Assembly: GCA_041665485.1 (NCBI GenBank)
Contig: JBAYIT010000001.1
Span: 277,156 to 341,155 of the forward strand
Source of the DNA: Candidatus Shapirobacteria bacterium
GTDB taxonomy: Bacteria; Patescibacteriota; Microgenomatia; UBA12405
DNA length: 64,000 nucleotides
Direction: 5' to 3'
Position numbers and translations under genes: made by a program. The notes beneath the pieces were generated by a model that saw nothing but the letters and a program-made list of their open reading frames with translations, did not search any database and was not told the origin of the DNA. Position 1 is the stretch's first letter. Each line of letters begins with the position of its first letter. This document shows positions 18,001 through 33,963 of the stretch, one piece after another.

Positions 18001-21000
18001 GAAAATTTGAGTTTGGGGGAGCTATTGAGACTCCGAGTGGTTCGGGGGCGAGAAATGGCGGAACAGCCTCTGCTGGCCAAAATATACGGAAGTCGGGACA
18101 GGATGTTGTTGTCAGTTTTTATGACACTAAAGTTAGAATTCGAAGGGACAGGGGCCGTTATTATTTATATAACGATGGCCCCTCTTGGATGAATGTCGAT
18201 GTTGCTGGTCGGAATGAGCTTGTAATTGTGTTTTCGAGTAAAGTTTATGAATTGAAGAATGGGGACTTTTTCTATGATCAGTACGGAGTCGGGTATAGGT
18301 TTGTTGACAATGGTGGCGTGGCGTATTTGTTGGATGCTCAAGGTAACATAGTGTGGGTGTTTGATCAGGATCAGAGTAGGAGGAGTGACGAGGTAAGGAT
18401 TGAAACTAATAACGTGGTTTTTGATTTGCCATCTTTGGGGATTCTTGCCAATATTTTTGTTACTAATACCGATGCTAGTGGAGTAGTGAAAATTTACATA
18501 GACGAGACAACTACAGGCACGATATATGTTAAAAAGGAACAAATAGGGGGATTTAGTGTTAAGCAAAACTATCCCCCGGGAAGTTATCAGTTGGGTGATG
18601 GTGATGAGGTGACAATTGCCGGGGTAGTGTATACGGTTATAAATCAGCCTCAGTTGGGGACAATAATCATGGGTTCAGATGGAAAGCAATATAAGATTAG
18701 GGATCCATGGGGTGGCAAGTCGATGAGAGATAAGGCAAGAGAAGACAGAGAGCCGATTTCTCTTAAGTTCGCCGGTATTTTGGACAAGATGAACAAAATA
18801 GACGCCATATTATTGTCAATGGGGGTGGCTGATTATGAGAGCAAGATGGTTCAGGTAGAAGCAATAGCTGATCGTTTAGAGATTGATATGGCTGACGTGG
18901 AAGCCCAAATTGGCGGATGGTTTCGAAATTATGGAAATTATTTGGGGCCCAATGATGGTATCAGGCAAAGCATGGAGACAATGAGCCGTGATCTGAAACA
19001 GAAGCGTTTAAATTTGGTGGAACGGAAAAAGATGCTAGCCAATATTCAAAAATTTGCAATTAAGTGGAAACTTGGGATAAATCATGGTCTCGCTTATGAG
19101 ACTATGATCGGAAATTTGGGGAAACTGGATACGAAGTTGGCAGAGGAATATCGTCGCGGTCTTACAGATATTAGAACAGATATGGTGGCAAATGGATTTA
19201 TACTGAGAAGTGGGATGCCGGGTAGTGGTGAAACTAAGGCGGAGATTTTGAAATCGGTTGAAAGTGATTTGGTGGCAATTGATAGTTACATTGGAGTGGT
19301 AATGAGAATTAATGAATTAAAGAGCGGAAGGGCTAAGATCGGGGAATGGGAAATCGAGGCTGGGGAGGTTAGGCGATTAGGGCAGATTTTAGTGGCGGAG
19401 AGGACGGCGACTAGACCACTATCATCCTCGATGGTTTTTGACATACGGGAGAAGATGCTAAATGCTTTGAACCAATTAGTTGCTGAAAACGTGGCAAAGG
19501 CAAGGGGTTTAACCACTAAAGATCGCGACCAAATACTTTCATGGGAGGCGAGCCTGAAAAAAAATGTGTCAAATGTGCAAATGATGGAGGTCATAATTCA
19601 AGCGGAGGAGATGCAGGGGAGAGTGGGAGAGAGTAAAGGTTCAATTTCTGGAGTTGTTGGGGGGAATTGGCGTAATAGGTTGACGAAGATAATTGCCGAA
19701 AATTGGCGAAGATTAACTGAAAACTATTCCAACCTTTGGATTGGAAAGATGGTAGCTGATACAACCCAGGTAATTGAGAATGAGAAAAAAGCTGTGTCGT
19801 TTGCTAGCGAGGAGGAGGCAAGAAGGTGGGTTGTCGAGAGAATAGAAAATAGAATGTCTGCCTATTTGGACTCGCCTCCCGGAGGTTTGAGTTGGTTGCA
19901 GGGGCAGATAGAAAGTGGCGAGACATCGGTGCTGGCTAAAAGATTGGCCGGGGTGGTGGTTGCCACTTTGCAGGGGGCGAGGGGTGATTTATCGAAACAG
20001 ATTTTAGGGGCGGTGTCGTATTCATCGAAACCGGTGGATTACTCGCAGTGGTCTCAAGCAGCGAAAACTAATATCTCAATTCAAGTTGAGGAGAACTCTT
20101 TGAGAGTAGCAAGATTTCATCCATATGTGCGTCAAGGTAGAAGTAAAGAGGATAGGGCGGCAACGTTAGTAGATAGCCGGGGTTATGCAATTGGCCAGGT
20201 GATAGCAGATGGGCATTCGCGGGATAAGAAGGCTGGTCAGTTAGTGGAACAAGTAGTGGCCAATGTTCAGTCTAATTTGAAAAGATATGATTGGACGACG
20301 ATGGACAGAAAAGGAGCGGAGAGGATACTGGTGGGAATCTACAGTCAGATATCTTTAAATTTTGCATTTGAAGAGAGGGGTGCGGTACTTCAGGTGGCGG
20401 TAGTGACGACAGATGGTTATGTGGTAATGAATGTAGGTGATCCGACATTACTAACAGTTGATGTCAGAGGCAGGATAGTAGAACACGGAGGTGGAGATTG
20501 GGCCACGGTAGCCGAGGCAATGCAGAAATATGATAAGGCCATTTGGGATCGATGGGTGCCAGATCCTTTTTCTATTGATACCCGAGGTGTGTGGCGGGAC
20601 GATAGGTTGTTGATGGTGGCCAACACGATCGGAGATGATGCTAGCGCGAGGCGGGGTATTCAGATAGTAAGGGAATATTTGGCCAAAAACCAGGGACGAA
20701 TGAATCCTGAATTAAGGAGGATTTTGGATGGGGCAGTGAATTATAGAATGGAATATTTTGGGAAAGACGAAGTGGCAGGGGTGATAATAGGCTCGGATGC
20801 GGTGGTAGATAACTCGAAGAAGACTGGTGGTTTTGAGACAGTGGTGAAGAAAAGTTTGAGCCAGAATAGTGAAGACGTTATTAGTCGGATGGTGGGAATG
20901 ATAAGTCCGGACGTGTTGGGTAAGAGTGTTGATGATTTGTCGGTGGGCTACCTGAAGTGGAGTGAATATTTCGGTGGTGTTGGAAGTGTTGAGGTAACTT

Positions 21001-24000
21001 TGGATACAGCAAAAACGGGACAGATAAAGATAGGTAATGTAGTAGTAGGTGGGGGTCAAGGTAGCCAGACGAGTGGATCCGCGGCGGCGAAAGTAGTTTA
21101 CGAGCCAATAATTATTGGTCGGAACGAAAATGATTTGGATGGGATGTTTAGGTTTAATCAAACAGTGTCGCGCAGACAGGCAAATTTGACATTAGAGGGT
21201 GGCGATTTATTTATTGATGATGCTGGGTCGATGAATGGGACTTGGGTGAATGGTGTCAGAATCACAGGAAGGACAAAGCTATATTCTAGTGATGAAGTGA
21301 AATTTGGCTTAGGTTCACAAGAGGTGGTTTTACGGTTTGGACTGGAGGGGACGACTTGGGTGGCAGTTCAAAAAACCACCGGAAAAAGATATGTGTTTAA
21401 TTTTCAAAAAGCTGGTTTCCAGCCCAATGGTTGTTCTGATTGTTCGGTGGTGCGACAGACGGTGGAGAAATTGGTGGCGAAGGCGAAAGGTTTTTATGAG
21501 GCGGGCAATTCGGCAGAATTTCAAAGATTGATTGATTTGGCTTATGGTTATAACAATAATCACACTTTTGTGAATGAAGTAATTCAACAATATGGCATGG
21601 CGAATATTAGTTACGTGGAGGCAATAATGAAGAGGACAGCGGAAACAGTTAAGTATGCTCAAAAGATGGCGGCGTTGTCTTTGGAAAAAGTGGACGTGGT
21701 TAGGGACGGAGAAGCGCTAACAGGGGGAGCATTAGCAGAATTGGATGGCATAGAAAGTGATGTTAAAGCTAAACAAGGAGAATTGGGAAAAATTGAAGTA
21801 GTCAAACAAAGTGAAGAGGAACAGGCGGCAGAGGTAAAGGCAATTGACGAGAGGCAGAGGGCACTTGACGAAAAGAAAAAAGCAGGAGATGCTAAAACAG
21901 AACAACAAAAGAGTGAAGAAATGAAAGTAGTCGAGGATGAAGTGGCGGTGGTGGAGGAAATGGAACCGAGTGTGAAAGTGGTTGAAGAAAGTGATTTGGG
22001 CATAAAATCATCGGAATCGGTTAAAACAACTAGAGCCAGGATTATTAAAGACGGAAAGGACTTGGGGTGGTACATCGTTAAAGAATTTAGGTCGAGCGAG
22101 GTGGTACAAGACAATTTGGATGATTATCAGCTTTTAAAAGAAAAAGGATTTCCGGTTCCAGCAGAGGTAATGGTAATTCCAGGAAGGCCGAATTCAATAG
22201 CAGTTACCGACTTAACTGAAAACGGAAAATATGAAATTTATTCATATAACAATATTACTGACGGGGCCATTAAACCAAATATTTCTAACTTTGACGAAGT
22301 AAAACGGCAATTTAGAGACATAGCTCAGAGGGCGGATGACAACGGATGGTTGATGACCAATGATTCATATTTTTTAGTTCTTGACCCAATCACATATGTT
22401 GGAAGGGTAGTAGTGGGAGATTTTGGTGGGGCAGTGATGACAAAAGAGGAGGCAGTAAAACAATACGGATATTTGAAAAGCGACACTAGTTTGAAAATGG
22501 TGGAGAACTTTATGTTGCCGACCTTGGCGAGTGTGTTTAATGGAGGGGAAGTGGGAGCAGTGGCGGCGGCGGAATATAAACCTCTTGGTTGTTCGGATTG
22601 TGCGGTGTGTGATGTGACAGTTGATCAGATAATTACTCAGGCTAACGACGAGGCGATTAAGGGCAACGATCAAAAGGCTTTGGAAATATTACGAGGGTTA
22701 ACGGCCTATGCCAATAGTCACGTCTACGACAATAAGGTGGCTCAACGGCTGCAAAACTTGAGGATTGCGGTGGCAGAAGCAATTATCGCCAGAACATCAG
22801 AGACTCAAAGTTATGCTTTAATGCAGGCCAACTTGGCAATTGACGAAATAGAGAGAGTGTTGAAAGAACCAGGGTTGACCACGGGACAGATAATAGGTCT
22901 GGTTCATGAACGGGAGGAAGAAGTGAAACCGGCGATAAAAAAGGTGCGGGCGATTAGAGTGAGTCAATCGAAATTGGGTGAGATGTTTGAGAGTAGATTG
23001 AGAAGGGCGGAAATAAGTGTGGCTGGAGTAGTGGGGACGGAGGTGGAGGCGGTTAGACAGAGGATGGAAGCGGGAACGGAAGAATTGAGTGTTGTTTTAG
23101 AAAAAAAGTTAATGTCAGTGGATAGAGTAATCGAGCCACAAATAGGAGAGCATTTATTGGAGGCTAAAAATCCAAAGATGTTTTTGGCAGTTAAACGGCT
23201 GTTGAATTTTTCCAATCAAAACGAAAGATTTTTGGATGACAACGAAGGGGTGGTGGTTGGTTTGCAAAAAATTATGGACGATTTAACAATAGTGGTGAAC
23301 AAGGAAAGAGTGGCGGGCAAGAAAAAAGCTATGCCGGCGGTTAAAGTTTTTGTTCAAGTGGGGGGAGAGCCAAACGCCTTTAGTTTGCCGGATGGGTCGA
23401 TAGTGGTGACTCAGTCATTAATTAATTTAATGAGAACAGAGGATGAAATTGCGGCGATTTTGGTGCATGAATTTTCTCATTTTGAGGACCACTTTATGGA
23501 CTGGCGGGAAGATATTTTTGATAAGGGGGGGTTGGGCGAAGAGGTGGGTCAACCATTAGTAAGTAGATTGCAGGAGCATAAGGCTGATTACGTGGGAGCG
23601 AGGTTAAAGAAAATTGGTTTTAATGGCATGGCGATGACGTCGGCATTGGAAAACTTGCAAATTTATGTGGCTGATTTCGAAAAAGCCCAAAATGAAACGA
23701 TTCAGAAGGACTGGAGAAGAAAAATATGGAAATTTTTTGGCATAAAGACAGTTGATGAGTGGAAAGCGGGAACTGATGTGGCTCATGGGTCGATTGCTAA
23801 TAGAACGGCCGGCCAGGAGGTAGGTAATAAATTTATTGAGCATGGGGGGGAGGCAGTGGCGCCAAGAGAAGTGCCAAGTGGCTGGAAGGGTAAAGCGGGG
23901 GTGGATGAGATTTATGGCCATTTAGTGGGTGATAATTATGGTCCGGAATGGGAAAAAGCATTGAGGTCGGCGCCAAGCGAGGTGGTGCGGCAATACATGG

Positions 24001-27000
24001 AGAGTTTTACTAAGGAATGGTTGGTGGAAATGGCGAATCAGAAGACTTATTATGATGGCCGATTTACAAGGCGGAAGGATAAAAAAGGAGTAGAGCGGCT
24101 GGTTCAAACAGTATATGATGATCGCCTTTTTGAACAATTTAGTCAGTATCAGTTACAAATGCTGAAGAAGTTTGAGAGTTTGGAGAAATTGATGGCAGAA
24201 AGGATGGAAGTAAGTGGAGAGGATGAAGGAAAGATGATTAGACTGATGACAGTCATCAAACCAGGTCCACAAGGAGGAGAGCTTTATTCGCAATTATTGC
24301 ATCAACTGAAGGGGGAAATGATGCCGGGTAAGGCGCAGGAGGAGGGAAAAAAGCTTTTGGCTAGAATTGGAGTGGAAAATGGCCAAATGTCGCAGGAATA
24401 TGTGGCGAGGATAATTGATCAAAAATTTTGGGGAGAGAGATTGGCTAGAGTGGGATTAAGTGGGGCAGTTAACTTCCGTCCGGGGCCAATTATCAATAAG
24501 ATTTTTGATGAAAATCTTTGGAATGAAGCCAATGATATAACGGCATTAACTAGAATTTTGGATTGGGTGTTGGTTTTACCTATGTCTGATTATTACCCGA
24601 GCGTATCGATGGAGAAAAAGGTTTTAGGAATGATGTTAACTTTGGCGTTAAAAGGACCAACGCAGGGAGAGTTAGTGTTTAATGAAGAGGTGGCCAAGAG
24701 GCTGGTGGAGGCGGGCTTACGGGTGTTGGAAGCCAATCCAAAATTAAAACAAAGTGAGTTGTATTACGATATTTTGGGTGACAATTATAATTTCAGAGGA
24801 GCACCTTTTTTGGTAAAGTTGGCTTATAAGAAGTATTTAGTGGCGGGATGGGGAATAGTTGACCTGTTTACAGCAGAAGAAGATTTTTATATTGCGGTTT
24901 TGAATCAAGATGAAGTGGCCTTGCAAAAAGTTTTAGTGGAACATCCGGATGCATCTTTGAATTACATAATGGCGGCGGCAGGCAACGGGGTTGGTGAGGA
25001 AAGACAGAAATGGTTGATGGCCGAAGTTAAAAAGTTTTTAGAAGGGCCGCAGTTTGATGGGGCGGATTGGAACGTGATGCATCCGGAAGAATCTAAGTTT
25101 ATGTTTAACTATCAGGCATCGATGGTTTTAGTTGAGGGCTATGAAGAAAGGCTTCGAGTGGCGGATTTAGTTCAGAATAAATATGTTGAGGTGATGATAA
25201 GGATGGATGATTCGAAATTGGGTAATTTGGTTTTTAAAATTTTTGAAATTCAGAGTATGTATGGGATTAATAAGGAGAAGTATCAGGAAAATGTCGAGAA
25301 AGTTTTTGGCTTACCGGTTTTTGATTTAGTGCAAAAAAGGATATTGGCCGAGAGTGGAAAGACAGGATATTGGGGTCAGCCAAAATACTTATATCGGAGA
25401 GCGGTAGCATTTTTGGAGGGTACCAGACAGATGTATGGGGGTGGGGTAGATTCTACCACTGTGGCAAACTATCCATTTTTTGGGGAGAATGCTTATGAAG
25501 CTAAGTTTTTGCAGCCATTTATTGAGCTGATGCTCAAGCAAGTAACAGACACTTACCCGGCTGATTTCCCCAAGACGACGACCACGGCTTTGAAGTATTA
25601 CCAAATAATTAAGGACTTACCGAAGAGTGATGAAAGAAAAGCGTTGCTTGACAGGGCGGTAGAGATGATGGTTCAACAAATGCCATTTGATGATTTGCTA
25701 AAGTTTGTTCAGGCAGAAATAGCCGATGGCAATGCTGAAATTGGAATTAAGTTTTTGGAGAATCGGGTGCAGACAAATTTAGAGTATCAAAAAGTTAAAG
25801 AAGCTTTTGGGAGTGATTTTACCAAAATGTTAACTGGCGGGGCGGTGGCGAAAGGGTCGGTGGGAGTGCTTTTGGATACGTTGATGAGTAATGTTCTTAC
25901 CGGCGAACAGACTTTTGAATTTTTTGAAGCGGCGCTAACCGGAGATGATGCCAAACTGAGATATTTTATGGGTAAGGCGTTTAGTGAATATCTTGGGTAC
26001 AACCAAGATGGAATAATGGTGCACGAGGATGGTTCAATTACGGGGACAGGGGTGGGAAATTTACCTATTTTTGAGGACTTGATGGCGGAGCTTTACAGTA
26101 TGTCGAAGATGCAAAAGACGGCTTTAATTTACAAAATTTTAGCTGATGATAGCTCTGGGATATTAAAACATGAAGAATTACATCCGAGAATTGCCTCTAT
26201 GATGCTTTCTAGGGTTGAAGGTGAGCCCGGGATGAAAACGTTTATGAATAAGGCCATTTTGGCGGTGTTGAAACAGAGAAGGGGGAGGACAAAAGTGGCT
26301 TTGGGGGTGTCGAGTAGTTTGGCAGACATCTTTTTAATGAAGCCGAAGCAAGTGGCAAGTAATGACTATGCAGTGAAGAGAATTATCGAAGGGAATTCTA
26401 ATTACAACGTTCTAAAAGATACTACCGGATGGTTGGAAGAGCAGAAAAAATATTTTTTGAGGGTATTGGGAACAAAAAAAGATGATGTAATGAAAGATCC
26501 GAGGAATAACGATCCGGTGGTGGTGGAATTGAGAAATGAGGTGGCAGAGATGTACAAAACAATGTATCAACGGATGGGGGTGGTTGAGAACAGTGGCCAA
26601 CAAACTTTGGGCTTTGAAGAGCAAAAAGTGCCAGCGACTAAATTTGTAGTTGAGATCGGCAAAGCCTTAGGAGCGTTGGGAGTAAGATTTTTGCAGGTAA
26701 TGGGCCAATACTATGAAATTACCCCGGAGATGCGAAACGACTTTCAAGCGGTGTATGACAGTGCGTCAAGTTTGTTTATGGCTAATGCTTTCCAGACGAC
26801 GGAAATGGGGATAGCGGCACTTAAAGCGGAAGCAGATAAATTAGAAGCTGATGGAACCAATCCTCAAAGAGTAGTGTGGTTGCGAGGGGAGGTGGCGGCA
26901 ATGGAAGAAAGGCAAAGGACAATGTTGGTAGTGAGAAAAATTGGCGGCGGGTCAATTAATACTGCCTATGAGGTAACTAAAATTGGGGGCGGGGAGCGCG

Positions 27001-29645
27001 AGGTTTATAAAATCTTAAATCCAAATACGCAGGAGGAATTAATGGCAGACACGGAATTGGTACAGAACGTGTTGGCGGAATTGATCCGTTCGGATCGAGG
27101 TAGGAGGCAAGACTATGAGGTGGCGGGTAAGTTAGTTTCAACCCTGGCTAATTGGATTGCCGAAGATGTGGCCGATGCTAATTATTTAACTTACGACCCG
27201 TATTTTACTCAAGCTTATGAGAGTTATTGGGGGCCGGAAGGAACAAGGATGCGTGTGTCGGAAACCAGGAGCCCTTATAATAAATGGACCAAGGCAGAAG
27301 GCTTTGTTGAGGGCGATACTTTAAAAGCGGCGATCAACGGAGTGGTTGGAAATGATCCACGGAGGCTTAAAGACACAACCAGCGATGAGGGACAAAATTT
27401 AATTAAAGTGATGAGTGATACAGTGAGCGATTATGTTCGACATATGTTTATACCGGTCAAGTTGGCTGACGGCAGGGAAGTTTATTTGTTGCATTCGGAC
27501 ATTCACATAGGGAATATCATGTTATCCACCCAAGGCGAGGGTTATGTAATTGATAGGAGTTATTATCTGGTGTTGGAGAAAAAGGATGTGGATATGATTG
27601 ATCAACTTTTAGCTGGTGACATCTCGGAGACGAAGAAGCTGGATATTTTAATTAATTATTTGTTAGATGAAAATAAGGTTACAGGTTTTAATCGGAATGT
27701 TCTTTACGGTAAGATGTTTTTAGCGGCGGCAAAACATCGAGCCAATACCGATGCGGCGGTGAATGCCTTGATGCAGGAAGTAGGGAGGAATGATTTGGAA
27801 GTGCCACTACGATTGAGGTTGTTTATGAAAAATATGAGTTCGGCAAACCGAATGTTGGAGTATATTGGCAATGAAACTTTGGGTGATTATGTACGAAGGT
27901 ATCATGAAGCAGAAAAGTTTCAGCAAGAATATTTTGATGAAGTAAGAAAATTGTTGACAGATGCTGGCCAGGATCCGGATGGAGTAGTGGGTAAACTATT
28001 GACTGGTGATTTTGAGGGTGGTTTTAGAATGTTGGAGGAGGTAACCTCAGCCTATGAGCCTCAAGGTTGTACTGATTGTTCGGTGTTTGTTCATGAAGTT
28101 AAAAAGAAAATTGCAGAGATAAACGGATTAACCGAACAGCCAGCTAGGTTAGCAAAACTACAAGAATTAAGGGATTATGTGTTTAATCACAAATTTGAAT
28201 CGAATCGGGTGGTGGAGGCTGGCGCCGAAGCGGTGGTAGAAATCGAAGAAGTGGTGGTGATTAAGACAGAGGAAGAAAAAGATGATGCTTTAAGAGCAAT
28301 TGATTTGGCGATTCAAAGAATTGATGAAGCCCTAGAGGAGAGTGGGTTGAGTGTAGGGGCAAGGGAGGCGTTGGGGGGTTATAGAGGGGAGATGGAGAAG
28401 AAAATGTTAGAAGTAATCTTTGTGATGTATGATGATTTTCTAGACGACAAAAGACAGTTATTTATTGGCGATAAGTCGGGATATTCTTTTTACGGATTAG
28501 TTGGTGATGAGGAAAAAGAATGGCTTGAAGAAGGGTTTTTGCCGATGCAGTTTAATTATGAGGATATTACTCTTTTAAATCAATTTGGTCGAAAGGTTTA
28601 TGTGTTGCCTCCTGGTTTGAGCGTGGAAAAACGAGCTGAGGTTGTGGGTGAAATAATTAACGGTGGAGATCCGGAGATATTATTACGTAAATTTGGTGAG
28701 GCACATTTGCGAAGTGATAGGGGGACAGATTTGTATTTTAATAAAGATCAATCTCCACTATTATTTGTCTATGAGCCGGTTGGAGAAGGGCCGCAGGGTG
28801 AAAAGATGGCGGGGGATTTATTGGCGGTTCTATACTCCGATACACCTTATCCTTCAATTGGAAATTATGTTCAAGAGCTTGTTGGTGAGCATAGACCAAG
28901 CGCGATGGTGTTGGAGACGTACACGATACCTAAAGATAAAGCTGAAGTATTAGGAAAAAAGATTAATCCAAATCGTCATGTATTGATGCCAAAGGGTAGT
29001 TTTATGACGCAAAAGGCTTTTGAGGAGGAATATTTTTGGGTGAATAGAGATGGCCAACTTGGTTTGTGGTCAGGACACTTACCTTCGGAGATTACTAAGA
29101 GAGTTGAAATGGCTAGAGTGGCGGTAGCTAACGGAGGCATTGAATTTCAAGAGTGGAAACAGGAATTGGGTAAAAATGAACTTATAACTTCAACTGATTT
29201 ACTGGCCAAATCAGGAACGGTGGCTCGTGGGATAGGTGCGGAGTATGCCCTGGCGACGGTTAGCTTAGGATTAAGAGCGGGTAGTAACGGAATTTTTTAT
29301 TACGGTCCATTTGCTTCAAGTGGTGGCTATTCCGACCCAGGTCTATTTGTAAATATTAATAGTGGTGTTTCGTTTGTGGTTGGGAGAGATATCGGTGATG
29401 CACGTAGAAAAATTCAGACTGACGAGGCAGGAGATAAGCAATATATTGCACTTGAGGATGTTCCTGCAGTTTTGGTGGGTAATGAAAAAATAAGATTAGG
29501 TTTACTTGATGGGATAAAGGCGTTGGAAGATGGCAGGGTGGTGAGGCCAGGAACATATGATTTTTGGAAAGACAGGATAAGGTTAATAACTGATATTAGA
29601 GTTAGAGAAGATATTGATGGTCTTTTTGGGGAGAGGGGTAGATAA
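1..29645 (+). CDS. Giant multidomain protein (>=9,863 aa; 5' end probably outside window). Contains long coiled-coil regions, calcineurin-like metallophosphatase, 2 FHA domains, PP2C-like phosphatase, protein-kinase-like domain, M48 metalloprotease, 3x CxxC-helix modules
   Basis: Single stop-free frame of 29.6 kb (track start TTG at 54; same frame has no stop back to nt 3: ...ATPDQREIDSYGRRLGELGAIKE...). Recognisable domain motifs are distributed along the whole length (see domain features). Stop TAA at 29643-29645, 15 nt before ruvA. Confidence 0.85.
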   Translation, partial: ATPDQREIDSYGRRLGELGAIKEARLDLSALTEDQRIAIDWVQRDVEHRTSIDEDGVRISRQAQSELVAIGLADDAVAKELVTAGGKTMAGAIILRIKTEVFGIDTGIYLAKEGAEPNIQRNLNRMTRFGDKVVILDSQKLSDPAYFKSLMEAKYVVVSNNELSFTRDHVMDVENPMSKQANSVWKKLTRRAAGYADEAQITLDINTQGIISKGESRIYSDTDIKVLATKKVAQVLSEEKILVKGDQKAHEGRLVTSVTHEGETLKISRFDKTTEEAIMTNLAKQNEVSPDFFKKVRQKKTELDLILKNGGGEVELKSVLGEGFDGVENLSQRVGGVLEELSMVRTFAQAMETEYTRTVDTKIQAQGTATGDRYAREVSVPTGGGKANFGQTYQGDMNLAMEAVGAIRAGGTPEFNGLKGSENKAFKSSAADWVADLQLDPESSIVAVTGTLGGNRGVVETVLGLRVHANGESTIKIVGEVDTPTGRLVNEDNSMAAKDNIDRNQLIEDAVTTGKFDTSRGKDSKGNLKVAMTNKNEDPLEVAVAIDKGRRQKGLEETTYFVQQGGSDYFEIKLGGDGTVVSRVLVTDKQIQARYSNGEGNLVTVIGRGGATGDSILTPDSTPFLLITAKGDPTYTVAQAGARGNRGSGDMDTLAIVVGEGSGRAGGNTSAERLEVAKQALDFPAWKKEIDLAEKTLNKDNITTGLNNGVAADSARMMFDALSNSSDAEVKAWASKQTLEKFNKAETGRDLTDSDGFTTNLEKRNQIAVEESRRWKAIMDDPDNQTILAKVKAELPNIYENMRINAQEAVDYPGGGYSYASGKEGTKDAVLVARNLREAREMHNRNITADLENKYAVVGKADSSTVADSTIKPGDGGGALSAAEIGSARVWGVVDPAIPVASLDPVVVRVAVVAKQAEAEKERANAERLRIAGSTNAPTRQETLDRLKEAIKIAEAENAEWERLSEIPAYGDDGKAIWEHSEYKRRVEAKIVAVNKEAAKLGVATVDPVTGKQRPIKDINDEIALKKGTGSVGIGEDETKKQNDRAKEFGTVRRSGEENKELEIRLDGIKREYDALKSLGIERVADTSGKLPAYGVFMSGAIKELDKQMESYGLRYNSSDGIEKNVEDLKVAKAEKRDEVIRLAETAGVEGVDWSTLTTTEIKRMTVDKIAGNEADIVRQKAEAEAEARIATIVGQIRAIKTDYVRPDELDENGANADLAKVKEERSELVDQINGIDGGQKKADLEKMTIGDLEARLADRQEKLTSLKAEYKRLAGEETGVGEIQKLTGQIGSLVATRTGLETTAKIKGITATVTDALSNPAIQEMINDDNNAEAEFRNTRSGEGFMWRDRNNGELEGDYEFEWNKEKEAKRRELRAEIARVAGGEVAGLENLTVKELEVRLKQEELVATSRANLVQLQATWSGLVPEAARYGREHGISPDQTENSYRTAITGLRNWIAEAERTRQTTLGKIRDLDGVVAVANTNTTNLGVLDEVLTTVKKNNTDLIALDNEIKKYLGADYKTDRSQGLVKALEVAEAKLAEVKRQWNDLWTQIDEIRGVRTSDKVRLGQKNLTTLGRVKELANTRALRASEAEQQRQVEEVTRNETRRVALVVEVRNIWGDVSLEPDGLEKMTIVQVGLEKAKANQALVQARQEATKNGATPTELAGAKNIKAMRDLVAKKVEEATILADEQRRQAEEVARQAKAEADRKAEEARVVEEQRLAKIAADKQLVDRVMAEVNGIVVTTGSNQDETKEALQAAVNRLVGIDTITAKGANDLINQKKALIKKVEEYYEGQDVNDALVTGVARVLGVAQVNNWNTKLGALQNYVDEQMFSNPTFWPDVGEEVVVQKIGEKLKELLGTSDQVMATEIKNRWNTKLVAERSRREEIRRENELFAHKQQYFSGEKAIPNLTDKEKESIMDAVDRNAVDTIVARLRVEKELKKAIGEVVSRTGVNGDLKGHLTEADVRKAENIEALNQMVAKAEVAKGLAVAERVAGGEWAGERGKWLNITKGRNELDIDYIKKVEKAERRVVVEQANKILAGLNSEMARELERYVVERKSILEKMTAEGVTVAIGEHLAQYAQRWYYRDTPGSIYQTVIKNMRDTPGELGNVYALSVERVVGSQQQAMIDNQLARLKTTVGKGVAAKRVALGDVHSDVEQLARILRGEVNVGADFKPVLDKSNNWIGGKTVIRLTGDLIDKLPPGMTGIQVLQTIRNWQKQARDAGGDIIITLGNHDIHTIAMANGVLEEPMITSGVDIHLILELRKPEYGDLLNWFTQLPLITKSEESGNIYIHSDTVAYLEYGDTIEEIDQNIRSILTTGRGLPGKIAPTSYLRTDPATKERSWVRGVSPIEALMHNLTGRRGEFKDPNNVTRFLTILDGKGIIHGHNPGVSYDDPRVINVDAGMSLGMYKPGDDPGLQRGRAIVSTILPGGELKIDIERRFAQVKISDKDLPDVADLWLIKPTLRPEKNIILGRNEGVDLPVNDSRVSSKHARLSRDLAGFWWIEDNSSTNGVAVWEGKYWRELKNIDPVARNTGLRDRSRLVDGSIISLNRDTNLSLWFRVKVDGNGEISLEPYSSQPQQPGLGVEAPAKTSQQDGDVAKSNLLQVMAQNAGIEVGSVVEKMNNMANEARSGGFKNLPSNLNNQSNIIEIVNMNAALVVYFKADYRSRAGVDLTKPVVVGATANCFDWQKAYVMAISEIGKPASQPSVAPSAAPSVAPAPIIVPPAGDTGVVLGVDSKGREVRIKTVNGKEEVVVENLIIKHNSIGTVLGNGTKYEKSVAGEPGDVVAVNGKGENQIRVSFSKDGKVVQVKVGGIVVEKKEANEAITVADLVVREVTLNTAADQSGVKKAVTRAKAELDKIDPKIASEVESKLGPIRTRIVEIENHVARVEGYYAGKSNIVVAEQVARVLGVVGMDKGDDVYAVVDGLWGGIEMVRIEDVSTDTSIIANIRGEIMSRRLGISDSQIVELAKFIAGNWTTQVAAERVRRADLTKAKTEYWRAESAKSNLAAAALYELGGGSYAVNLTSRYQTLDQFKIAVEEQLRIANYLVDGYKTANPEITDEDIESAFTGFGTSGSTAFAFKSVMNGVDERAKARVAEARVKALPIEGFLTVEEVTAKKTVKEIDDLVEEKGRERDSYIAKQKEELRQVAPLTQDEEKAIDGASGKTAIDRELVKIKQAIATRVLIEDQKKNPLVKVGNGYKNNSGRSIKYHTTDNQKTWTWVAGQVIPEETLKNKIVEVDDDRVIWVNGQGVVTTYTIALTNADYKPLQAKFLDKKGNVIKDKDGKVDLDSSKVEGVESYEVKGSDGTITVFHVANAKFPQGVKSKRELVANMAWVVSRTREVIGNQAKDVSNEVLLVPQEATSFGGMAPGVKSEDVNSVMVVVYDLVKTQSVLAHELGHEHFGSSPVTDISEGVAINVSMEAIGGGVDQERMDGILDQPFDVKGEGEGIITSTGLATLDKATEKDRWLYTYKSGTFLIRSLIEVVGDRSKAWEMVGRLMEAGRKKFYWSEGLVVTRISGGATVDYATAIDELLVDVGFNAEQRTAVYEKQSTYLYLGNKAQIKYEESEVTKKIGTKPGNGGYVIRGMFLAKEHVEMVRTRRGGLLLISNKSKMGTRVFREGQWQEVRVGGDPTELREGDVVKLGSIGSSVYFKVVDLYGRLDLKEIEAYGVKGKEKNKEERVLGEDPVVTEYRRKLWDNYRYEDPHEWRLGILRTAMNTRISDVTRMRARAAKYGVENDISWAGRTTEEMRADLEAKVGPMVVALNARAKAVGLVDIKDEETVEDFVKNISEIERYIGLYKLLNKGSADGLNFGVEGFQQLSTRLKAKIWELARQRGVASNKFVTFSIATAKEMLNRIDVLNARAEKVGLAPKSSDVSEIGYFYDLERTESLIKLLKFMGKTDIGVGKLMESGELYERLIGLLEERAKELGLTDLGDVSDENKVSMVRDRLNAGWVEKAQKEGLTVTVATGDWPVDMERKYESAKEQFLIAEYGGLAVARPRGDDTFLVWESWLRKAKSDNNRKIEMAVLEGLNVGGLTSTMTESELVAKISELRRRAKEEYLGRITDRVRLVGVAGTSWIILEKDTQSLEQFKKDVDSAGDLAVSLVEQAKEEVPEMKQTDIDAEFATSKTGTVNGRLVEAKLVATRRLNLAKQPVVVRTMTGGDLEGFLTTTEIEAKKTVKEINDLVAEKGRERDNYKVKQKDGLDSGGKAVIDKAKGKTAIDKAVADINQERVNLEARAKVVGMTVTKQQSGEQLGRLIKALEEANSMMVDANNLAEAKKLLAKLNAEPAYKGSPVIAELEGKIGVVALRSALPNGQRPEDLTVKNKLLPEYQVALEEMYQGVPDGFKKQAKLAAYYFQSLDTGEKLVTAQGYDLTPYRDRFLEAFSHTGFANVVQPGSKMYDVAPAEAYPIWLQEKQVAIREERRVASEGWDYSKVETFVNQYLRNYGKLDSSSGQDYYFFDSSRGAKEVEKPLTYNNKMYIENGQLMDLDKLGEFFDQLKILGIHPNEMKSFEDGSSLVLYWSGGLLDSEVKMIQDVLAKVGLKARGPAQDPIRLVVGKDGKLGMTVFGSNDASLGDAGRNPFIWSDKYNEGEFFKQWLRLTYYGQKNPADPYRMSFIRAEVDKAKLADAELEKKLREVDTAGLPIVISSNFGPSSSEYLFGTSFGNSQGKIIYKAESNVDLAEAQQAQEQSKKQQQAVGGFFGVAESTFRSLGDDFGRWNVANQAVGWYNMAKVVEVYNAMAEAEGITDFSQVVDADDSLREFLRQKLLVKNLSLEDGQMNGLVEYLEEKLKGGVEEEIRGRKTERRLPAGVNLLFVQDDVDLGVNEDENIVYLISGESVKTVDLSQIPDLFYFDETQQNHVPKEATIDQDGWELRGMSPYDVEIKKGAVKIFVKFGRRMQYDKIMWLRMYVSDGLVFEWVKLGDNPQLTGYLLEGQYLSGDSRGDDLAYIEQLRRLRNLAIRVLGSDVSGDGLRRFYVVETLLPSANGMTTDEILNKIEERWQKKIDEVNLKARRLGLAPMGEGDDYDGYNAKVANFESRLNVLRGVGKEAPRLEYARVLNSARYSDFYWQVNRPALENVDMATAQVNNGIERKTIWDSWLKTVVGKGLRVVNGNVVWGVIDFGKEPTADVVGELERRAQEIVTKYNDSVVVLERWSERVGQRLDYVGDMEKFLEDKQETLNSCREANERLLKFGQEYGLREDELTAIKSIARLNQTTQDYSRKEAELPGRFSALNVGIVRDPKQRLDEYENQLVELQQMVDNGLALSDQLDGETNSQYLSRMKEKESLEYGKLKEIAKQNGLNDVDIKQFGTLGKLRKEIVRLLKEEIKLLGGDVEADGIEDIEQLVVLKGTVQEQKRMEKENLLIEIMKYYPDYSNGGISAIKSDLAKAVARRNEVAGQIMIVNPNLADKVNATNNIAELEKMLEVAKGAREVDQKTAVANKSVGGQIDQYFEKIKDDLERGRFVARTLGWSNFGRWDDVYNAMAEVEGLTDFSQVTDLDQLAKFIRDQDRIKALQLEKTQEDQVVEYVRRKLEGRVKEGLERRAKSAGVEGELGKVKVALAGLVGVDKVGGYEVSADGLTQAKADLAEASRSAGKLAQRIIELDPAKSLEVTRLNIPALEKMLREMESEARIKELVRRGGTVVAGNTPVLAALEAKPQVQDIAKLEAVERSVTAMLGELETEVADPRVAKVLGDLRLQQQRAASLRVILEQEVLVAEGQQLAVEVGEVKGKVEARQDLARQKGVISSLLTRARALQGKLEKIVSRERKVASARETVKGNISTLERLETEANMVALSEKLGRGKVELIIRENGQESGNRLDVNVAYLDAIASDLDVLIGQQRLVIAELDGVLGELDSVATLGDLSPKTMAVVKKYIPKMVVTDKVAEVVGELRDRRQEYRDVVGELLGLQAALRNRTKFDGLSNGAGKIVKRSLARRFHPDTVGEIVTVKLGGETLLVDLESRRNIQPLISELFINPKIIGKFEFGGAIETPSGSGARNGGTASAGQNIRKSGQDVVVSFYDTKVRIRRDRGRYYLYNDGPSWMNVDVAGRNELVIVFSSKVYELKNGDFFYDQYGVGYRFVDNGGVAYLLDAQGNIVWVFDQDQSRRSDEVRIETNNVVFDLPSLGILANIFVTNTDASGVVKIYIDETTTGTIYVKKEQIGGFSVKQNYPPGSYQLGDGDEVTIAGVVYTVINQPQLGTIIMGSDGKQYKIRDPWGGKSMRDKAREDREPISLKFAGILDKMNKIDAILLSMGVADYESKMVQVEAIADRLEIDMADVEAQIGGWFRNYGNYLGPNDGIRQSMETMSRDLKQKRLNLVERKKMLANIQKFAIKWKLGINHGLAYETMIGNLGKLDTKLAEEYRRGLTDIRTDMVANGFILRSGMPGSGETKAEILKSVESDLVAIDSYIGVVMRINELKSGRAKIGEWEIEAGEVRRLGQILVAERTATRPLSSSMVFDIREKMLNALNQLVAENVAKARGLTTKDRDQILSWEASLKKNVSNVQMMEVIIQAEEMQGRVGESKGSISGVVGGNWRNRLTKIIAENWRRLTENYSNLWIGKMVADTTQVIENEKKAVSFASEEEARRWVVERIENRMSAYLDSPPGGLSWLQGQIESGETSVLAKRLAGVVVATLQGARGDLSKQILGAVSYSSKPVDYSQWSQAAKTNISIQVEENSLRVARFHPYVRQGRSKEDRAATLVDSRGYAIGQVIADGHSRDKKAGQLVEQVVANVQSNLKRYDWTTMDRKGAERILVGIYSQISLNFAFEERGAVLQVAVVTTDGYVVMNVGDPTLLTVDVRGRIVEHGGGDWATVAEAMQKYDKAIWDRWVPDPFSIDTRGVWRDDRLLMVANTIGDDASARRGIQIVREYLAKNQGRMNPELRRILDGAVNYRMEYFGKDEVAGVIIGSDAVVDNSKKTGGFETVVKKSLSQNSEDVISRMVGMISPDVLGKSVDDLSVGYLKWSEYFGGVGSVEVTLDTAKTGQIKIGNVVVGGGQGSQTSGSAAAKVVYEPIIIGRNENDLDGMFRFNQTVSRRQANLTLEGGDLFIDDAGSMNGTWVNGVRITGRTKLYSSDEVKFGLGSQEVVLRFGLEGTTWVAVQKTTGKRYVFNFQKAGFQPNGCSDCSVVRQTVEKLVAKAKGFYEAGNSAEFQRLIDLAYGYNNNHTFVNEVIQQYGMANISYVEAIMKRTAETVKYAQKMAALSLEKVDVVRDGEALTGGALAELDGIESDVKAKQGELGKIEVVKQSEEEQAAEVKAIDERQRALDEKKKAGDAKTEQQKSEEMKVVEDEVAVVEEMEPSVKVVEESDLGIKSSESVKTTRARIIKDGKDLGWYIVKEFRSSEVVQDNLDDYQLLKEKGFPVPAEVMVIPGRPNSIAVTDLTENGKYEIYSYNNITDGAIKPNISNFDEVKRQFRDIAQRADDNGWLMTNDSYFLVLDPITYVGRVVVGDFGGAVMTKEEAVKQYGYLKSDTSLKMVENFMLPTLASVFNGGEVGAVAAAEYKPLGCSDCAVCDVTVDQIITQANDEAIKGNDQKALEILRGLTAYANSHVYDNKVAQRLQNLRIAVAEAIIARTSETQSYALMQANLAIDEIERVLKEPGLTTGQIIGLVHEREEEVKPAIKKVRAIRVSQSKLGEMFESRLRRAEISVAGVVGTEVEAVRQRMEAGTEELSVVLEKKLMSVDRVIEPQIGEHLLEAKNPKMFLAVKRLLNFSNQNERFLDDNEGVVVGLQKIMDDLTIVVNKERVAGKKKAMPAVKVFVQVGGEPNAFSLPDGSIVVTQSLINLMRTEDEIAAILVHEFSHFEDHFMDWREDIFDKGGLGEEVGQPLVSRLQEHKADYVGARLKKIGFNGMAMTSALENLQIYVADFEKAQNETIQKDWRRKIWKFFGIKTVDEWKAGTDVAHGSIANRTAGQEVGNKFIEHGGEAVAPREVPSGWKGKAGVDEIYGHLVGDNYGPEWEKALRSAPSEVVRQYMESFTKEWLVEMANQKTYYDGRFTRRKDKKGVERLVQTVYDDRLFEQFSQYQLQMLKKFESLEKLMAERMEVSGEDEGKMIRLMTVIKPGPQGGELYSQLLHQLKGEMMPGKAQEEGKKLLARIGVENGQMSQEYVARIIDQKFWGERLARVGLSGAVNFRPGPIINKIFDENLWNEANDITALTRILDWVLVLPMSDYYPSVSMEKKVLGMMLTLALKGPTQGELVFNEEVAKRLVEAGLRVLEANPKLKQSELYYDILGDNYNFRGAPFLVKLAYKKYLVAGWGIVDLFTAEEDFYIAVLNQDEVALQKVLVEHPDASLNYIMAAAGNGVGEERQKWLMAEVKKFLEGPQFDGADWNVMHPEESKFMFNYQASMVLVEGYEERLRVADLVQNKYVEVMIRMDDSKLGNLVFKIFEIQSMYGINKEKYQENVEKVFGLPVFDLVQKRILAESGKTGYWGQPKYLYRRAVAFLEGTRQMYGGGVDSTTVANYPFFGENAYEAKFLQPFIELMLKQVTDTYPADFPKTTTTALKYYQIIKDLPKSDERKALLDRAVEMMVQQMPFDDLLKFVQAEIADGNAEIGIKFLENRVQTNLEYQKVKEAFGSDFTKMLTGGAVAKGSVGVLLDTLMSNVLTGEQTFEFFEAALTGDDAKLRYFMGKAFSEYLGYNQDGIMVHEDGSITGTGVGNLPIFEDLMAELYSMSKMQKTALIYKILADDSSGILKHEELHPRIASMMLSRVEGEPGMKTFMNKAILAVLKQRRGRTKVALGVSSSLADIFLMKPKQVASNDYAVKRIIEGNSNYNVLKDTTGWLEEQKKYFLRVLGTKKDDVMKDPRNNDPVVVELRNEVAEMYKTMYQRMGVVENSGQQTLGFEEQKVPATKFVVEIGKALGALGVRFLQVMGQYYEITPEMRNDFQAVYDSASSLFMANAFQTTEMGIAALKAEADKLEADGTNPQRVVWLRGEVAAMEERQRTMLVVRKIGGGSINTAYEVTKIGGGEREVYKILNPNTQEELMADTELVQNVLAELIRSDRGRRQDYEVAGKLVSTLANWIAEDVADANYLTYDPYFTQAYESYWGPEGTRMRVSETRSPYNKWTKAEGFVEGDTLKAAINGVVGNDPRRLKDTTSDEGQNLIKVMSDTVSDYVRHMFIPVKLADGREVYLLHSDIHIGNIMLSTQGEGYVIDRSYYLVLEKKDVDMIDQLLAGDISETKKLDILINYLLDENKVTGFNRNVLYGKMFLAAAKHRANTDAAVNALMQEVGRNDLEVPLRLRLFMKNMSSANRMLEYIGNETLGDYVRRYHEAEKFQQEYFDEVRKLLTDAGQDPDGVVGKLLTGDFEGGFRMLEEVTSAYEPQGCTDCSVFVHEVKKKIAEINGLTEQPARLAKLQELRDYVFNHKFESNRVVEAGAEAVVEIEEVVVIKTEEEKDDALRAIDLAIQRIDEALEESGLSVGAREALGGYRGEMEKKMLEVIFVMYDDFLDDKRQLFIGDKSGYSFYGLVGDEEKEWLEEGFLPMQFNYEDITLLNQFGRKVYVLPPGLSVEKRAEVVGEIINGGDPEILLRKFGEAHLRSDRGTDLYFNKDQSPLLFVYEPVGEGPQGEKMAGDLLAVLYSDTPYPSIGNYVQELVGEHRPSAMVLETYTIPKDKAEVLGKKINPNRHVLMPKGSFMTQKAFEEEYFWVNRDGQLGLWSGHLPSEITKRVEMARVAVANGGIEFQEWKQELGKNELITSTDLLAKSGTVARGIGAEYALATVSLGLRAGSNGIFYYGPFASSGGYSDPGLFVNINSGVSFVVGRDIGDARRKIQTDEAGDKQYIALEDVPAVLVGNEKIRLGLLDGIKALEDGRVVRPGTYDFWKDRIRLITDIRVREDIDGLFGERGR
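6440..7250 (+). other. Domain in giant ORF: calcineurin-like/PPP-family metallophosphatase
   Basis: Ordered motifs RVALGDVHSD (GDxHG-like, nt ~6465), IRLTGDLIDK (GDxxDRG-like), IIITLGNHD (GNHE-like, nt ~6710), later IIHGHNPG...NVDAGMS (GH motif). Confidence 0.65.
7390..7715 (+). other. Domain in giant ORF: FHA (forkhead-associated, phosphothreonine-binding) domain 1
   Basis: NIILGRNEGVDLPVNDSRVSSKHARLSRD...WIEDNSSTNGVAVWEG...RLVDGSIISL...LSLWFRV matches FHA signature (GR...SR.HA...D..S.NGT...L.dGD.i.lG...f.f). Confidence 0.75.
10195..10245 (+). other. HExxH zinc-metallopeptidase-like motif in giant ORF
   Basis: VLAHELGHEHFGSS; motif only, family not assignable. Confidence 0.3.
20100..20835 (+). 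other. Domain in giant ORF: PP2C/PPM-like Ser/Thr phosphatase
   Basis: GQVIADGHSRD (cf. xADGMGGH), VVMNVGDPTLLTVDVRG (cf. NVGDSRaylxrdG), RDDRLLMVANTIGDDAS (cf. GDRYLLCSDGLSDxVS) in the order expected for PPM phosphatases such as PstP. Confidence 0.55.
21100..21345 (+). other. Domain in giant ORF: FHA domain 2
   Basis: PIIIGRNENDLDGMFRFNQTVSRRQANLTLEGGDLFIDDAGSMNGTWVNGVRITGRTKLYSSDEVKFGLGSQEVVLRF. Confidence 0.8.
21420..21600 (+). repeat. CxxC-helix module copy 1 (protein-level repeat in giant ORF)
   Basis: PNGCSDCSVVRQTVEKLVAKAKGFYEAGNSAEFQRLIDLAYGYNNNHTF. Confidence 0.5.
22030..22580 (+). other. Domain in giant ORF: degenerate kinase-like region with DFG-like motif
   Basis: ...DNGWLMTNDSYFLVLDPITYVGRVVVGDFGGAV... 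followed by the CxxC module; lacks clear glycine loop/catalytic HxD, possibly pseudokinase. Confidence 0.3.
22580..22780 (+). repeat. CxxC-helix module copy 2
   Basis: PLGCSDCAVCDVTVDQIITQANDEAIKGNDQKALEILRGLTAYANSHVY, preceded by GDFGG. Confidence 0.5.
23330..23690 (+). other. Domain in giant ORF: M48-family (Ste24/HtpX/BepA-like) zinc metalloprotease
   Basis: GEPNAFSLPDGSIVVTQSLINLMRTEDEIAAILVHEFSHFEDH (M48 HExxH signature) followed ~35 aa later by SRLQEHKADYVGARLKKIGFNGMAM (cf. SRxxExEADxxGxxLxxKAGYDPxxM with third-ligand Glu). Confidence 0.7.
26925..27600 (+). other. Domain in giant ORF: protein-kinase-like (PKL; ABC1/APH-like) domain
   Basis: Glycine-rich loop VVRKIGGGSINTAYEV, conserved lysine REVYKILNP, catalytic loop LLHSDIHIGNIML (cf. 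HADPHPGNILV of ABC1/APH kinases), Mg-binding YVIDRSY (DFG-equivalent). Confidence 0.6.
28055..28200 (+). repeat. CxxC-helix module copy 3
   Basis: PQGCTDCSVFVHEVKKKIAEINGLTEQPARLAKLQELRDYVFNHKF, preceded by GDFEGG at the end of the kinase-like domain. Confidence 0.5.
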
Positions 29646-33686: not shown

Positions 33687-33956
33687 ATGGCCGACATTAC
33701 AGTAAAACAACTTTTGGAACTTCAACGGCAACAGGCGGAAGAGTCGTATCAGGGTGTTGATGATTTGGAGATTGCCAAGGAAGAACTAGGGATAAAGGAT
33801 GGCACAGATCCTGACTTTGTGGCTTTGTGCCAAAAGTTGCAGGTAGAGATGGATGGCCAAAACGTTTTGAAGGTTATTGGCTTTGCAAGGAGGTTTGTGG
33901 ATATTTTTTTGGGGATTAAATATGAGGGAAAGCCGTTAGAAGAGAAGGTTGTCTAG
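33687..33956 (+). CDS. Hypothetical protein
   Basis: 89 aa ORF, 2 nt after preceding stop (operon-like packing). Confidence 0.4.
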   Translation: MADITVKQLLELQRQQAEESYQGVDDLEIAKEELGIKDGTDPDFVALCQKLQVEMDGQNVLKVIGFARRFVDIFLGIKYEGKPLEEKVV

Positions 33957-33963
33957 AATATTA

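Follow-up and report, generated by a model that had tools for sequence, protein, structure and literature searches.

A probable, strongly diverged UbiB/ABC1 domain within an M48 protease module of a giant protein from Candidatus Shapirobacteria

Among the kinase-like families, the UbiB/ABC1 proteins belong to the most ancient and the most poorly understood. They are usually membrane-bound and tied to quinone and prenyl-lipid metabolism, and their status as protein kinases is debated. The UbiB fold normally blocks the protein-substrate cleft with a KxGQ domain packed over the active site, and the Ala-rich loop is thought to suppress protein kinase activity. Here we describe a domain (nt 26640-27917) that is very probably a genuine, strongly diverged member of this family, situated within an M48 protease module of a giant protein encoded in a Candidatus Shapirobacteria genome (Candidate Phyla Radiation, CPR/Patescibacteria). 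The stretch analysed, 64,000 nucleotides of contig JBAYIT010000001.1 and hereafter called the window, bears the giant open reading frame (ORF) at 54..29645, on the forward strand like all the features of the giant protein described below. This ORF encodes at least 9,863 residues and is open at its left end: no stop codon is found from the left edge of the window to position 54, so that the true start of the gene lies beyond the window.

The hallmarks of the family are an Ala-rich loop (AAAS) instead of a Gly-rich one and the KxGQ domain N-terminal to the core (PMC8956952). In human ADCK3, the Ala-to-Gly change A339G in the Ala-rich loop turns on autophosphorylation, and both ABC1K6 and ADCK3 autophosphorylate in vitro in a Mn-dependent manner; UbiB-family domains are not established as protein kinases acting in trans (PMC8956952). 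As references for UbiB/ABC1 (PF03109; ADCK/COQ8 and plant ABC1K) we used human ADCK3/COQ8A (4PED), Rv3197/MABP-1 (5YJZ) and MSMEG_1954 (7CZ2). The RIO kinases (PF01163; A. fulgidus Rio1, 1ZP9, and human RIOK1) also count among the closest known systems, and the APH family (PF01636) was represented by APH(9)-Ia (3I0O) and APH(2'')-IVa (4DBX).

With the UbiB/ABC1 proteins, the domain described here has a common order of motifs, namely the loop followed by S-[IL]-x-[QT]-V-[HY], then V-x-K-V-x-x-P, the hinge E-x-x-x-G, the catalytic loop H-[SA]-D-x-H-x-G-N and the Asp. The C-lobe motif that begins with VP aligns as well, and the stretch preceding the core can tentatively be aligned with the KxGQ region. 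The clade to which the domain belongs differs from the known family in having GGGS and not AAAS, RFLQ and not KxGQ, an invariant D-R and not D-F-G, and NPN after the Lys. It lacks a transmembrane helix, whereas a canonical UbiB protein (P0152) has C-terminal hydrophobic helices; it always stands downstream of a fused M48 domain, in proteins of 1,500 to ~10,000 residues; and the bacteria that carry it are presumed to be without quinones. What is new is this divergent GGGS/RFLQ/D-R variant, the UbiB/ABC1 family itself being already known.

Motifs and conservation of the kinase-like domain

An earlier note on this DNA had quoted five short strings and placed a protein-kinase-like (PKL) domain at 26925-27600. 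All five strings lie in frame within the giant ORF: the glycine loop string IGGGSINTAYEV (aa 8963, nt 26940), EVYKIL (aa 8983, nt 27000; it contains Lys8986), HSDIHIGNIM (aa 9147, nt 27492), VIDRS (aa 9165, nt 27546) and, far upstream, VVGDFGG (aa 7453, nt 22410), to which we return below. The domain is indeed there, but the interval takes in only the part from the N-lobe to the metal-binding Asp. The core occupies 26916..27917 (aa 8955-9288) and comprises the N-lobe strands, a helical N-lobe insert, the hinge, the catalytic loop and a helical C-lobe, and an extension precedes it from ~26640.

The catalytic residues of the PKL superfamily are all present as the beta3 Lys (K8986), the Asp (D9149), the Asn (N9154) and the metal-binding Asp (D9167). 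The nucleotide-binding loop G8964-G-G-S8967 (26943..26954) puts a Gly triad at the position of the Ala-rich loop of UbiB; it aligns with ASAS of the canonical UbiB protein and with the Gly-loops of CK2alpha and PknB. Lys8986 (EVYK-ILNPN; 27009..27011) is aligned to VAVKIQYPG in Rv3197, to VAIKVQRPE in canonical UbiB and to Lys68 of CK2alpha, and the catalytic loop H9147-S-D9149-I-H-I-G-N9154 (27492..27515) to HGDAHPGN of Rv3197, HSDIHAGN of APH(9) and HADPHPGN of UbiB. The metal-binding D9167, followed by R9168 where others have D-F-G (27552..27557), aligns with the Asp of the UbiB DFG and with the corresponding Asp of Rv3197 and APH(9).

The same columns turned out to be conserved in an alignment of 135 homologues drawn from 50%-identity cluster representatives, which bears out the kinase-like character that the earlier note had ascribed to the Gly loop, the beta3 Lys, the catalytic loop and the metal-binding motif. 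The GGGS sequence is kept in 119 of the 135 relatives, the remainder having AGGS, GAGS or GGGA. At the beta3 position, 117/135 have K and 14 have R. All 135 share the catalytic Asp, the Asn five residues later is present in all but one (134/135), and both the metal-binding Asp and the Arg directly after it occur in every relative (135/135 each). The placement of the motifs is further backed by independent alignments, with CK2alpha for the Gly-loop and Lys68 and with Rv3197 for the Lys, the hinge, the catalytic loop and the Asp. The occurrence of the four motifs at 26.9-27.6 kb is far beyond chance.

Family assignment and predicted structure

Three Pfam families, ABC1 (PF03109), APH (PF01636) and Pkinase (PF00069), had been named in the earlier note for a hidden Markov model (HMM) search. 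By itself the query remained below threshold in all of them, and the PKL/ABC1 match was obtained with a family profile. Against Pfam ABC1, the query scored 13.9-16.0 bits, below the cutoff of 22.9, with no match in a 980-aa piece; it likewise did not reach the thresholds for APH (23.2 bits) and for the Hanks-type Pkinase. A 250-aa excerpt yielded sub-threshold matches to ABC1 (E 0.007), fructosamine kinase (0.007), APH (0.0099) and EcKL (0.16), all of them falling on the same 30-45 residues around HSDIHIGN. The NCBIfam UbiB model matched the HSDIHIGN segment (E 9.6e-4, 17.8 bits), and a phmmer search of PDB sequences paired the Gly-loop and EVYKIL of the query with their CK2alpha counterparts, the Gly-loop and Lys68 (E 0.1). 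Taken alone, each of these single-sequence matches would be a hint and not a finding.

The search for homologues depended strongly on the method. A word-indexed protein search gave 0 matches with the single domain and 4 proteins with the family alignment, whereas searching 1.84 billion cluster representatives exhaustively with HMMER gave 368 proteins at E ≤ 1e-3, of which 196 at E ≤ 1e-10, all spanning one common block of ~320 residues. The indexed negative is therefore no evidence of orphan status for domains so diverged. Similarly, a scan of a genome collection with the single domain found no relative, but a scan with the 4-sequence alignment did. The closest relatives of the domain with a named source come from Patescibacteria metagenome-assembled genomes (MAGs): one of UBA10108, in which the entire 12.2-kb locus is one open frame, one of Candidatus Kerfeldbacteria and one of Paceibacterota with a 3,283-aa ORF.

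Two further copies are worth recording here. On a 320-kb contig labelled uncultured Pseudomonadales (CAZWWE010000001.1), an ORF exceeding 2,397 aa includes a copy of the domain with 39% identity; the label of this contig is at odds with the Patescibacteria origin of the other close relatives, which could reflect mis-binning or lateral transfer. A 47.6-kb contig (ENA ERZ1286166 contig_5524) bears a 49%-identical fragment of the domain amid a long run of short gene calls on the same strand, which looks like a homologous giant gene split by frameshift errors of the assembly.

Unlike the query, the relatives matched curated models. Among 37 aligned members searched one by one against Pfam, 26 matched ABC1 (E ≤ 0.01; best 1.9e-20), 7 matched APH weakly and 1 matched RIO1; in P0026 and P0042 the ABC1 scores (42.7 and 52.3 bits) clearly exceeded the cutoff of 22.9. 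When the family profile was run against PDB sequences, the ABC1 family protein Rv3197 of M. tuberculosis ranked first (E 2.2e-4), in an unbroken alignment through the beta3 Lys (VAVKIQYPG), the hinge (EWIEG), the catalytic loop (HGDAHPGNFM) and the Asp. It was followed by APH(9)-Ia (2.5e-4), whose catalytic loop HSDIHAGNVLV...YIID is near-identical to HSDIHxGN-x(n)-ID here, and then by CK2alpha, another ABC1 protein, PknB and OspG. A profile-profile alignment (hhalign) with P0152, a canonical UbiB protein bearing KFGQ, ASAS, VAIKVQRPE, HADPHPGN, LDFG and C-terminal hydrophobic (transmembrane) helices, had a probability of 97.7% and an E-value of 1.4e-12, and its 271 columns extend into the C-lobe. 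Thus, where the earlier note had left the type open between ABC1/UbiB, APH and choline kinases, ABC1/UbiB is the right family; APH failed both on the Pfam threshold and as the closest neighbour. Nor does the domain have the Pkinase match and the DFG...APE activation segment of the Hanks-type kinases, PknB being among its weaker matches in sequence and structure.

AlphaFold2 with the 37-sequence alignment produced a model of aa 8955-9288 with a mean predicted local distance difference test (pLDDT) of 94 and a predicted template-modelling score (pTM) of 0.89; from the single sequence, the model was useless (pLDDT 38). The bilobal kinase structure expected by the earlier note was obtained, with a five-stranded N-lobe, a hinge and a helical C-lobe. 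A Foldseek search against PDB put the mycobacterial ABC1 proteins 7cz2, 5yk0 and 5yjz on top (E 4.7e-10 to 1.5e-8), with more than 1,000 further matches at E ≤ 1e-3, and all those among the matches listed were protein kinases. The nearest structural neighbours of the model are UbiB proteins (ADCK3/COQ8A, Rv3197/MSMEG_1954), together with their UbiB-specific helical insertions. ADCK3 aligns over ~100 more residues of the model than other kinases do, indicating that UbiB-specific helical elements are common to both, beyond the generic kinase core. The PKL fold thus stands on both a sequence match, for which the family profile was needed, and a bilobal model.

Upstream of the core lies an extension (26640..26915, aa 8863-8954) that is the probable counterpart of the UbiB KxGQ domain, as judged by alignment. 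It bears the motif G-V-R-F-L-Q (nt 26679-26696, aa 8876-8881) where canonical UbiB has F-I-K-F-G-Q, within a conserved block LGxxGVRFLQxxGQYxxxP ~85 residues upstream of the Gly-loop. In relatives, matches to the NCBIfam UbiB models (E 1e-9 to 8e-15) begin ~73 aa ahead of the Gly-loop, which corresponds to profile position 57-60 for the first matched residue. The hhalign comparison paired GVRFLQ with FIKFGQ of canonical UbiB at E 5.6e-4 and a probability of just 30%, with K replaced by R and G by L, and a profile of the extension run against PDB did not retrieve UbiB structures.

The conserved M48 module and the other domains of the giant protein

BLASTP showed that aa 7681-9324 (23094..28025) of the giant protein form a module colinear with P0001 (38% identity over this whole segment), P0002, P0003, P0008, P0012 and others, which are either stand-alone proteins of ~1,500-1,700 aa or segments of other giants of 5,400-7,400 aa. 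The module contains a Peptidase_M48 core at 23307..23633 (PF01435, 46-47 bits vs a cutoff of 20.3), and 1,150 residues separate it from the kinase-like core that follows. The match takes in only positions 13-77 of the 186 in the profile, which form its core, and the zinc site is intact, with HEFSH at aa 7805-7809 (nt 23466-23480) and QEHKAD downstream. Most homologues are ~1,450-1,700 aa long and carry the UbiB-like domain at the extreme C-terminus. In the four proteins scanned (P0012, P0021, P0026 and P0040), Pfam found M48 near the N-terminus of all and a C-terminal ABC1 domain in two; both together were seen in P0021, P0026 and P0042. The gene of P0026 is complete on its contig and encodes 1,613 aa. 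As a protein by itself, the module occurs in many uncultured bacteria. The conserved unit of ~1,600 residues is therefore read as an M48 domain, a linker of ~1,100 aa and the UbiB-like domain. Those members of this M48 plus UbiB-like family (~1,450-1,700 aa) that were looked up carry no functional name or are called hypothetical. In two large relatives, P0014 (aa 2721-2823) and P0042 (aa 103-184), the module is accompanied by HATPase_c (a GHKL ATPase domain) and HEAT repeats, with no FHA or phosphatase domain.

The earlier note had also reported FHA and phosphatase domains in the same polypeptide. Two FHA domains and one metallophosphatase do pass the Pfam thresholds; a third FHA match (18.6 bits) and a PP2C-like segment do not. 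The FHA domain at 21108..21308 (aa 7019-7085; PF00498, 49-50 bits, cutoff 20.7) is the nearest phospho-threonine reader upstream of the module, and the other one lies at 7431..7565 (aa 2460-2504; 34.4 bits). The metallophosphoesterase at 6456..7178 (aa 2135-2375; PF00149, 26.0 bits, cutoff 21.5) is ApaH/PPP-like, its best PDB phmmer matches being ApaH (4.7e-6) and a Shewanella protein-tyrosine phosphatase (2.4e-5). The possible PP2C-like segment at 20130..20477 (aa 6693-6808) scored 21.3-22.7 bits with PP2C_2, under the cutoff of 24, and had nothing at E ≤ 0.1 among PDB sequences. Domains of these three kinds like those found here were undetected in the 150 best relatives by single-sequence phmmer, which is a weak test with many partial proteins, and Pfam did not show them in three large homologues either, of which two have HATPase_c in their place.

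A second, degenerate DFG-containing region at ~22.4 kb, which the earlier note had seen around VVGDFGG, did not hold up as kinase-like. Pfam gave nothing at E ≤ 10, hhalign against the family profile gave 0.4%, and the PDB phmmer search returned insignificant dodecin matches and no kinase. Strings of the type D[FLI]G occur nine times in the giant ORF, and the VVGDFGG site appears to be a chance occurrence. There is a loose visual likeness to a minimal kinase at 22.4 kb (YIVKEF ... NDSYF ... GDFGG, in plausible spacing), with the HxD...N loop lacking.

For the Pfam scans, the giant ORF was cut into 10 pieces plus 9 overlapping ones. Neither Pfam nor NCBIfam found a kinase family above threshold in any piece, and the piecewise Pfam scans revealed no second kinase-like domain elsewhere in the protein. 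Matches to Pfam, NCBIfam or PADLOC models account for just a few hundred of its residues, and anti-phage defence models gave zero matches anywhere in the ORF. No transmembrane-like hydrophobic segment was seen in the 9,863 residues, apart from a single marginal 19-residue window (score 1.65). The protein type is absent from the description of giant genes in an Omnitrophota preprint (10.1101/2023.11.21.568195). A second HExxH site (HELGHEHF, aa 3388, window ~10215-10230) lies near a sub-threshold Pfam match to the enhancin-like Peptidase_M60 (E 0.026, aa ~3293-3394), so that the giant protein may hold two different metalloprotease domains, M48 and M60-like.

Immediately downstream of the giant ORF are ruvA and ruvB. 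The CTP synthase encoded in the window shares 67-72% identity with Candidatus Shapirobacteria proteins and up to 93% with metagenomic ones, as expected for a CPR/Patescibacteria genome. Farther on in the window, on the forward strand, three ORFs of 241-375 aa (33949-35031, 35083-35808 and 37494-38621) have no Pfam match at E ≤ 1e-3, and two adjacent, overlapping paralogues (43050-44090 and 44087-45112) show the NTP_transferase plus ManC beta-helix architecture of mannose-1-phosphate guanylyltransferase-like proteins. The ORF at 38611-39852 has a C-terminal Trans_reg_C domain (OmpR-type DNA-binding) alone, with no recognisable receiver domain seen.

Possible activities of the UbiB-like domain

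Several points weigh against reading this region as an active UbiB/ABC1 domain that works together with a protease. The query by itself is under every curated threshold (13.9-16 vs 22.9 bits for ABC1; 17.8 bits for NCBIfam UbiB), so the family assignment depends on transitive and profile evidence and on the predicted structure. Two hallmark UbiB motifs are altered, with GGGS for AAAS and RFLQ for KxGQ. The KxGQ-type extension has a 30% hhalign probability and nothing from the PDB profile search in its favour, and the model covers aa 8955-9288. The beta3 Lys is replaced by Arg in 14 and by a non-basic residue in 4 of the 135 relatives. Biochemical activity can hardly be deduced from the sequence, and the kinase activity of UbiB proteins in trans resists demonstration; the link to the protease would follow from the fusion alone.

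As read from the alignment, the ATP/metal site (GGGS, Lys8986, Asp9149, Asn9154 and Asp9167) is nevertheless complete and under strong purifying selection, comprising all residues required for binding of ATP and a divalent metal and for transfer or hydrolysis of the gamma-phosphate, and the UbiB-like domain would be an active ATP-dependent enzyme and not a pseudokinase. We consider it very improbable that it is a dead pseudokinase whose sole role in the giant protein is that of a scaffold, structural or ATP-sensing: the great distance of the single sequence from all curated models, DR in place of DFG and RFLQ in place of KxGQ would speak for this, but a (near-)invariant Asp, Asn and metal-binding Asp in the 135 relatives, along with the Lys in 117, would be unexpected for a pseudokinase. 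That short kinase-like strings merely co-occur in a very long ORF has practically no chance of being true. Such strings do arise, since D[FLI]G is found 9 times in ~10,000 residues and VVGDFGG is apparently a case of this kind; for the main region, chance is refuted by the HMMER homologues, the AlphaFold2 model, the structural matches and the hhalign alignment to UbiB. Our estimates for the scaffold reading and for the ATPase and phosphorylation readings that follow are independent of one another; they form no partition and need not sum to one.

If the domain is an active enzyme, it could act by ligand-responsive ATP hydrolysis, as has been suggested for COQ8 and for Rv3197/MABP-1, an ATPase stimulated by macrolides. 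It would then be an ATPase or an enzyme directed at a small molecule or lipid, hydrolysing ATP upon binding of a small ligand and phosphorylating no protein. By analogy with these proteins we hold this to be a tentative possibility, somewhat short of an even chance. The closest structures are indeed those of ADCK3/COQ8A and Rv3197/MSMEG_1954, one relative weakly matches the NCBIfam model of the MABP-1 ATPase, and the UbiB-specific helices and the N-terminal extension are seemingly kept; on the other side stand the absence of a membrane anchor, the replacement of the Ala-rich loop by Gly and the lack of a nameable ligand. Moreover, going by the title of a report (10.1101/2020.04.07.029462), Patescibacteria are said to be without electron-transport chains and hence without quinones, which for this lineage is a suggestion; a role of the domain in quinone biosynthesis would accordingly be unlikely. 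The earlier note had gone in another direction and viewed the giant protein as a writer-reader-eraser fusion. In such a scheme, the domain would be an active Ser/Thr kinase phosphorylating threonines of the protein itself or of its partners, the FHA domains would read these marks, and the PPP- and PP2C-like domains would remove them. Where a kinase-like fold meets FHA and phosphatase domains in one protein, a signalling logic like that of the PknB, PstP, FhaA and GarA systems, Hanks-type kinases with their FHA and PP2C partners, suggests itself. The FHA domains and the metallophosphatase are real, two FHA domains and the metallophosphatase standing above the Pfam thresholds in the same ORF; the active site of the UbiB-like domain is complete, and this domain is the sole candidate writer found in the 9,863 residues. 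In addition, its Gly triad is a natural counterpart of the A339G change in ADCK3, and ABC1K6 and ADCK3 do autophosphorylate (PMC8956952). Yet FHA, PP2C and metallophosphatase domains were not seen alongside the kinase-like domain in either the 150 closest relatives or the three large homologues, the conserved partner is the M48 protease, the cleft-covering KxGQ region of UbiB appears to have a counterpart here, the PP2C segment is below threshold, and another kinase gene of the genome could supply the ligands of the FHA domains. For these reasons we regard the writer-reader-eraser scheme as unlikely, although still worth bearing in mind.

We return to the diverged UbiB/ABC1 domain within an M48 module. 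Given its natural Gly triad in place of the Ala-rich loop, protein phosphorylation in cis or autophosphorylation is plausible for it. The strict fusion with M48 suggests, from architecture alone, that ATP turnover regulates the protease or is regulated by it. The functional partner of the domain would be the M48 protease, for instance if ATP gates or regulates the protease or the conformation of the module. The domain may also be coupled to the FHA and phosphatase domains that share its polypeptide, as a feature specific to this giant protein. The most far-reaching version, in which a soluble, true kinase of the UbiB type marks its own threonines, the FHA domains read and the PPP/PP2C domains erase these marks, and ATP turnover controls the M48 protease, is in our opinion quite improbable. 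If it were true, an ultra-small, quinone-free CPR bacterium would possess a self-contained machine for phospho-signalling and proteolysis, and the long-enigmatic UbiB family would gain its first clear protein-kinase branch.

The domain gives a first clue to the function of one part of a giant protein (at least 9,863 residues) with few recognisable domains, and its significance would be raised by demonstrated protein kinase activity or by demonstrated coupling to the protease. The clade consists of hundreds of 50%-identity clusters, soluble and fused to M48, whose relatives with a nameable source come from Patescibacteria MAGs. In other words, it may be viewed as a natural experiment on the UbiB fold outside quinone biology, and on the purpose of the Ala-rich loop and the KxGQ motif.

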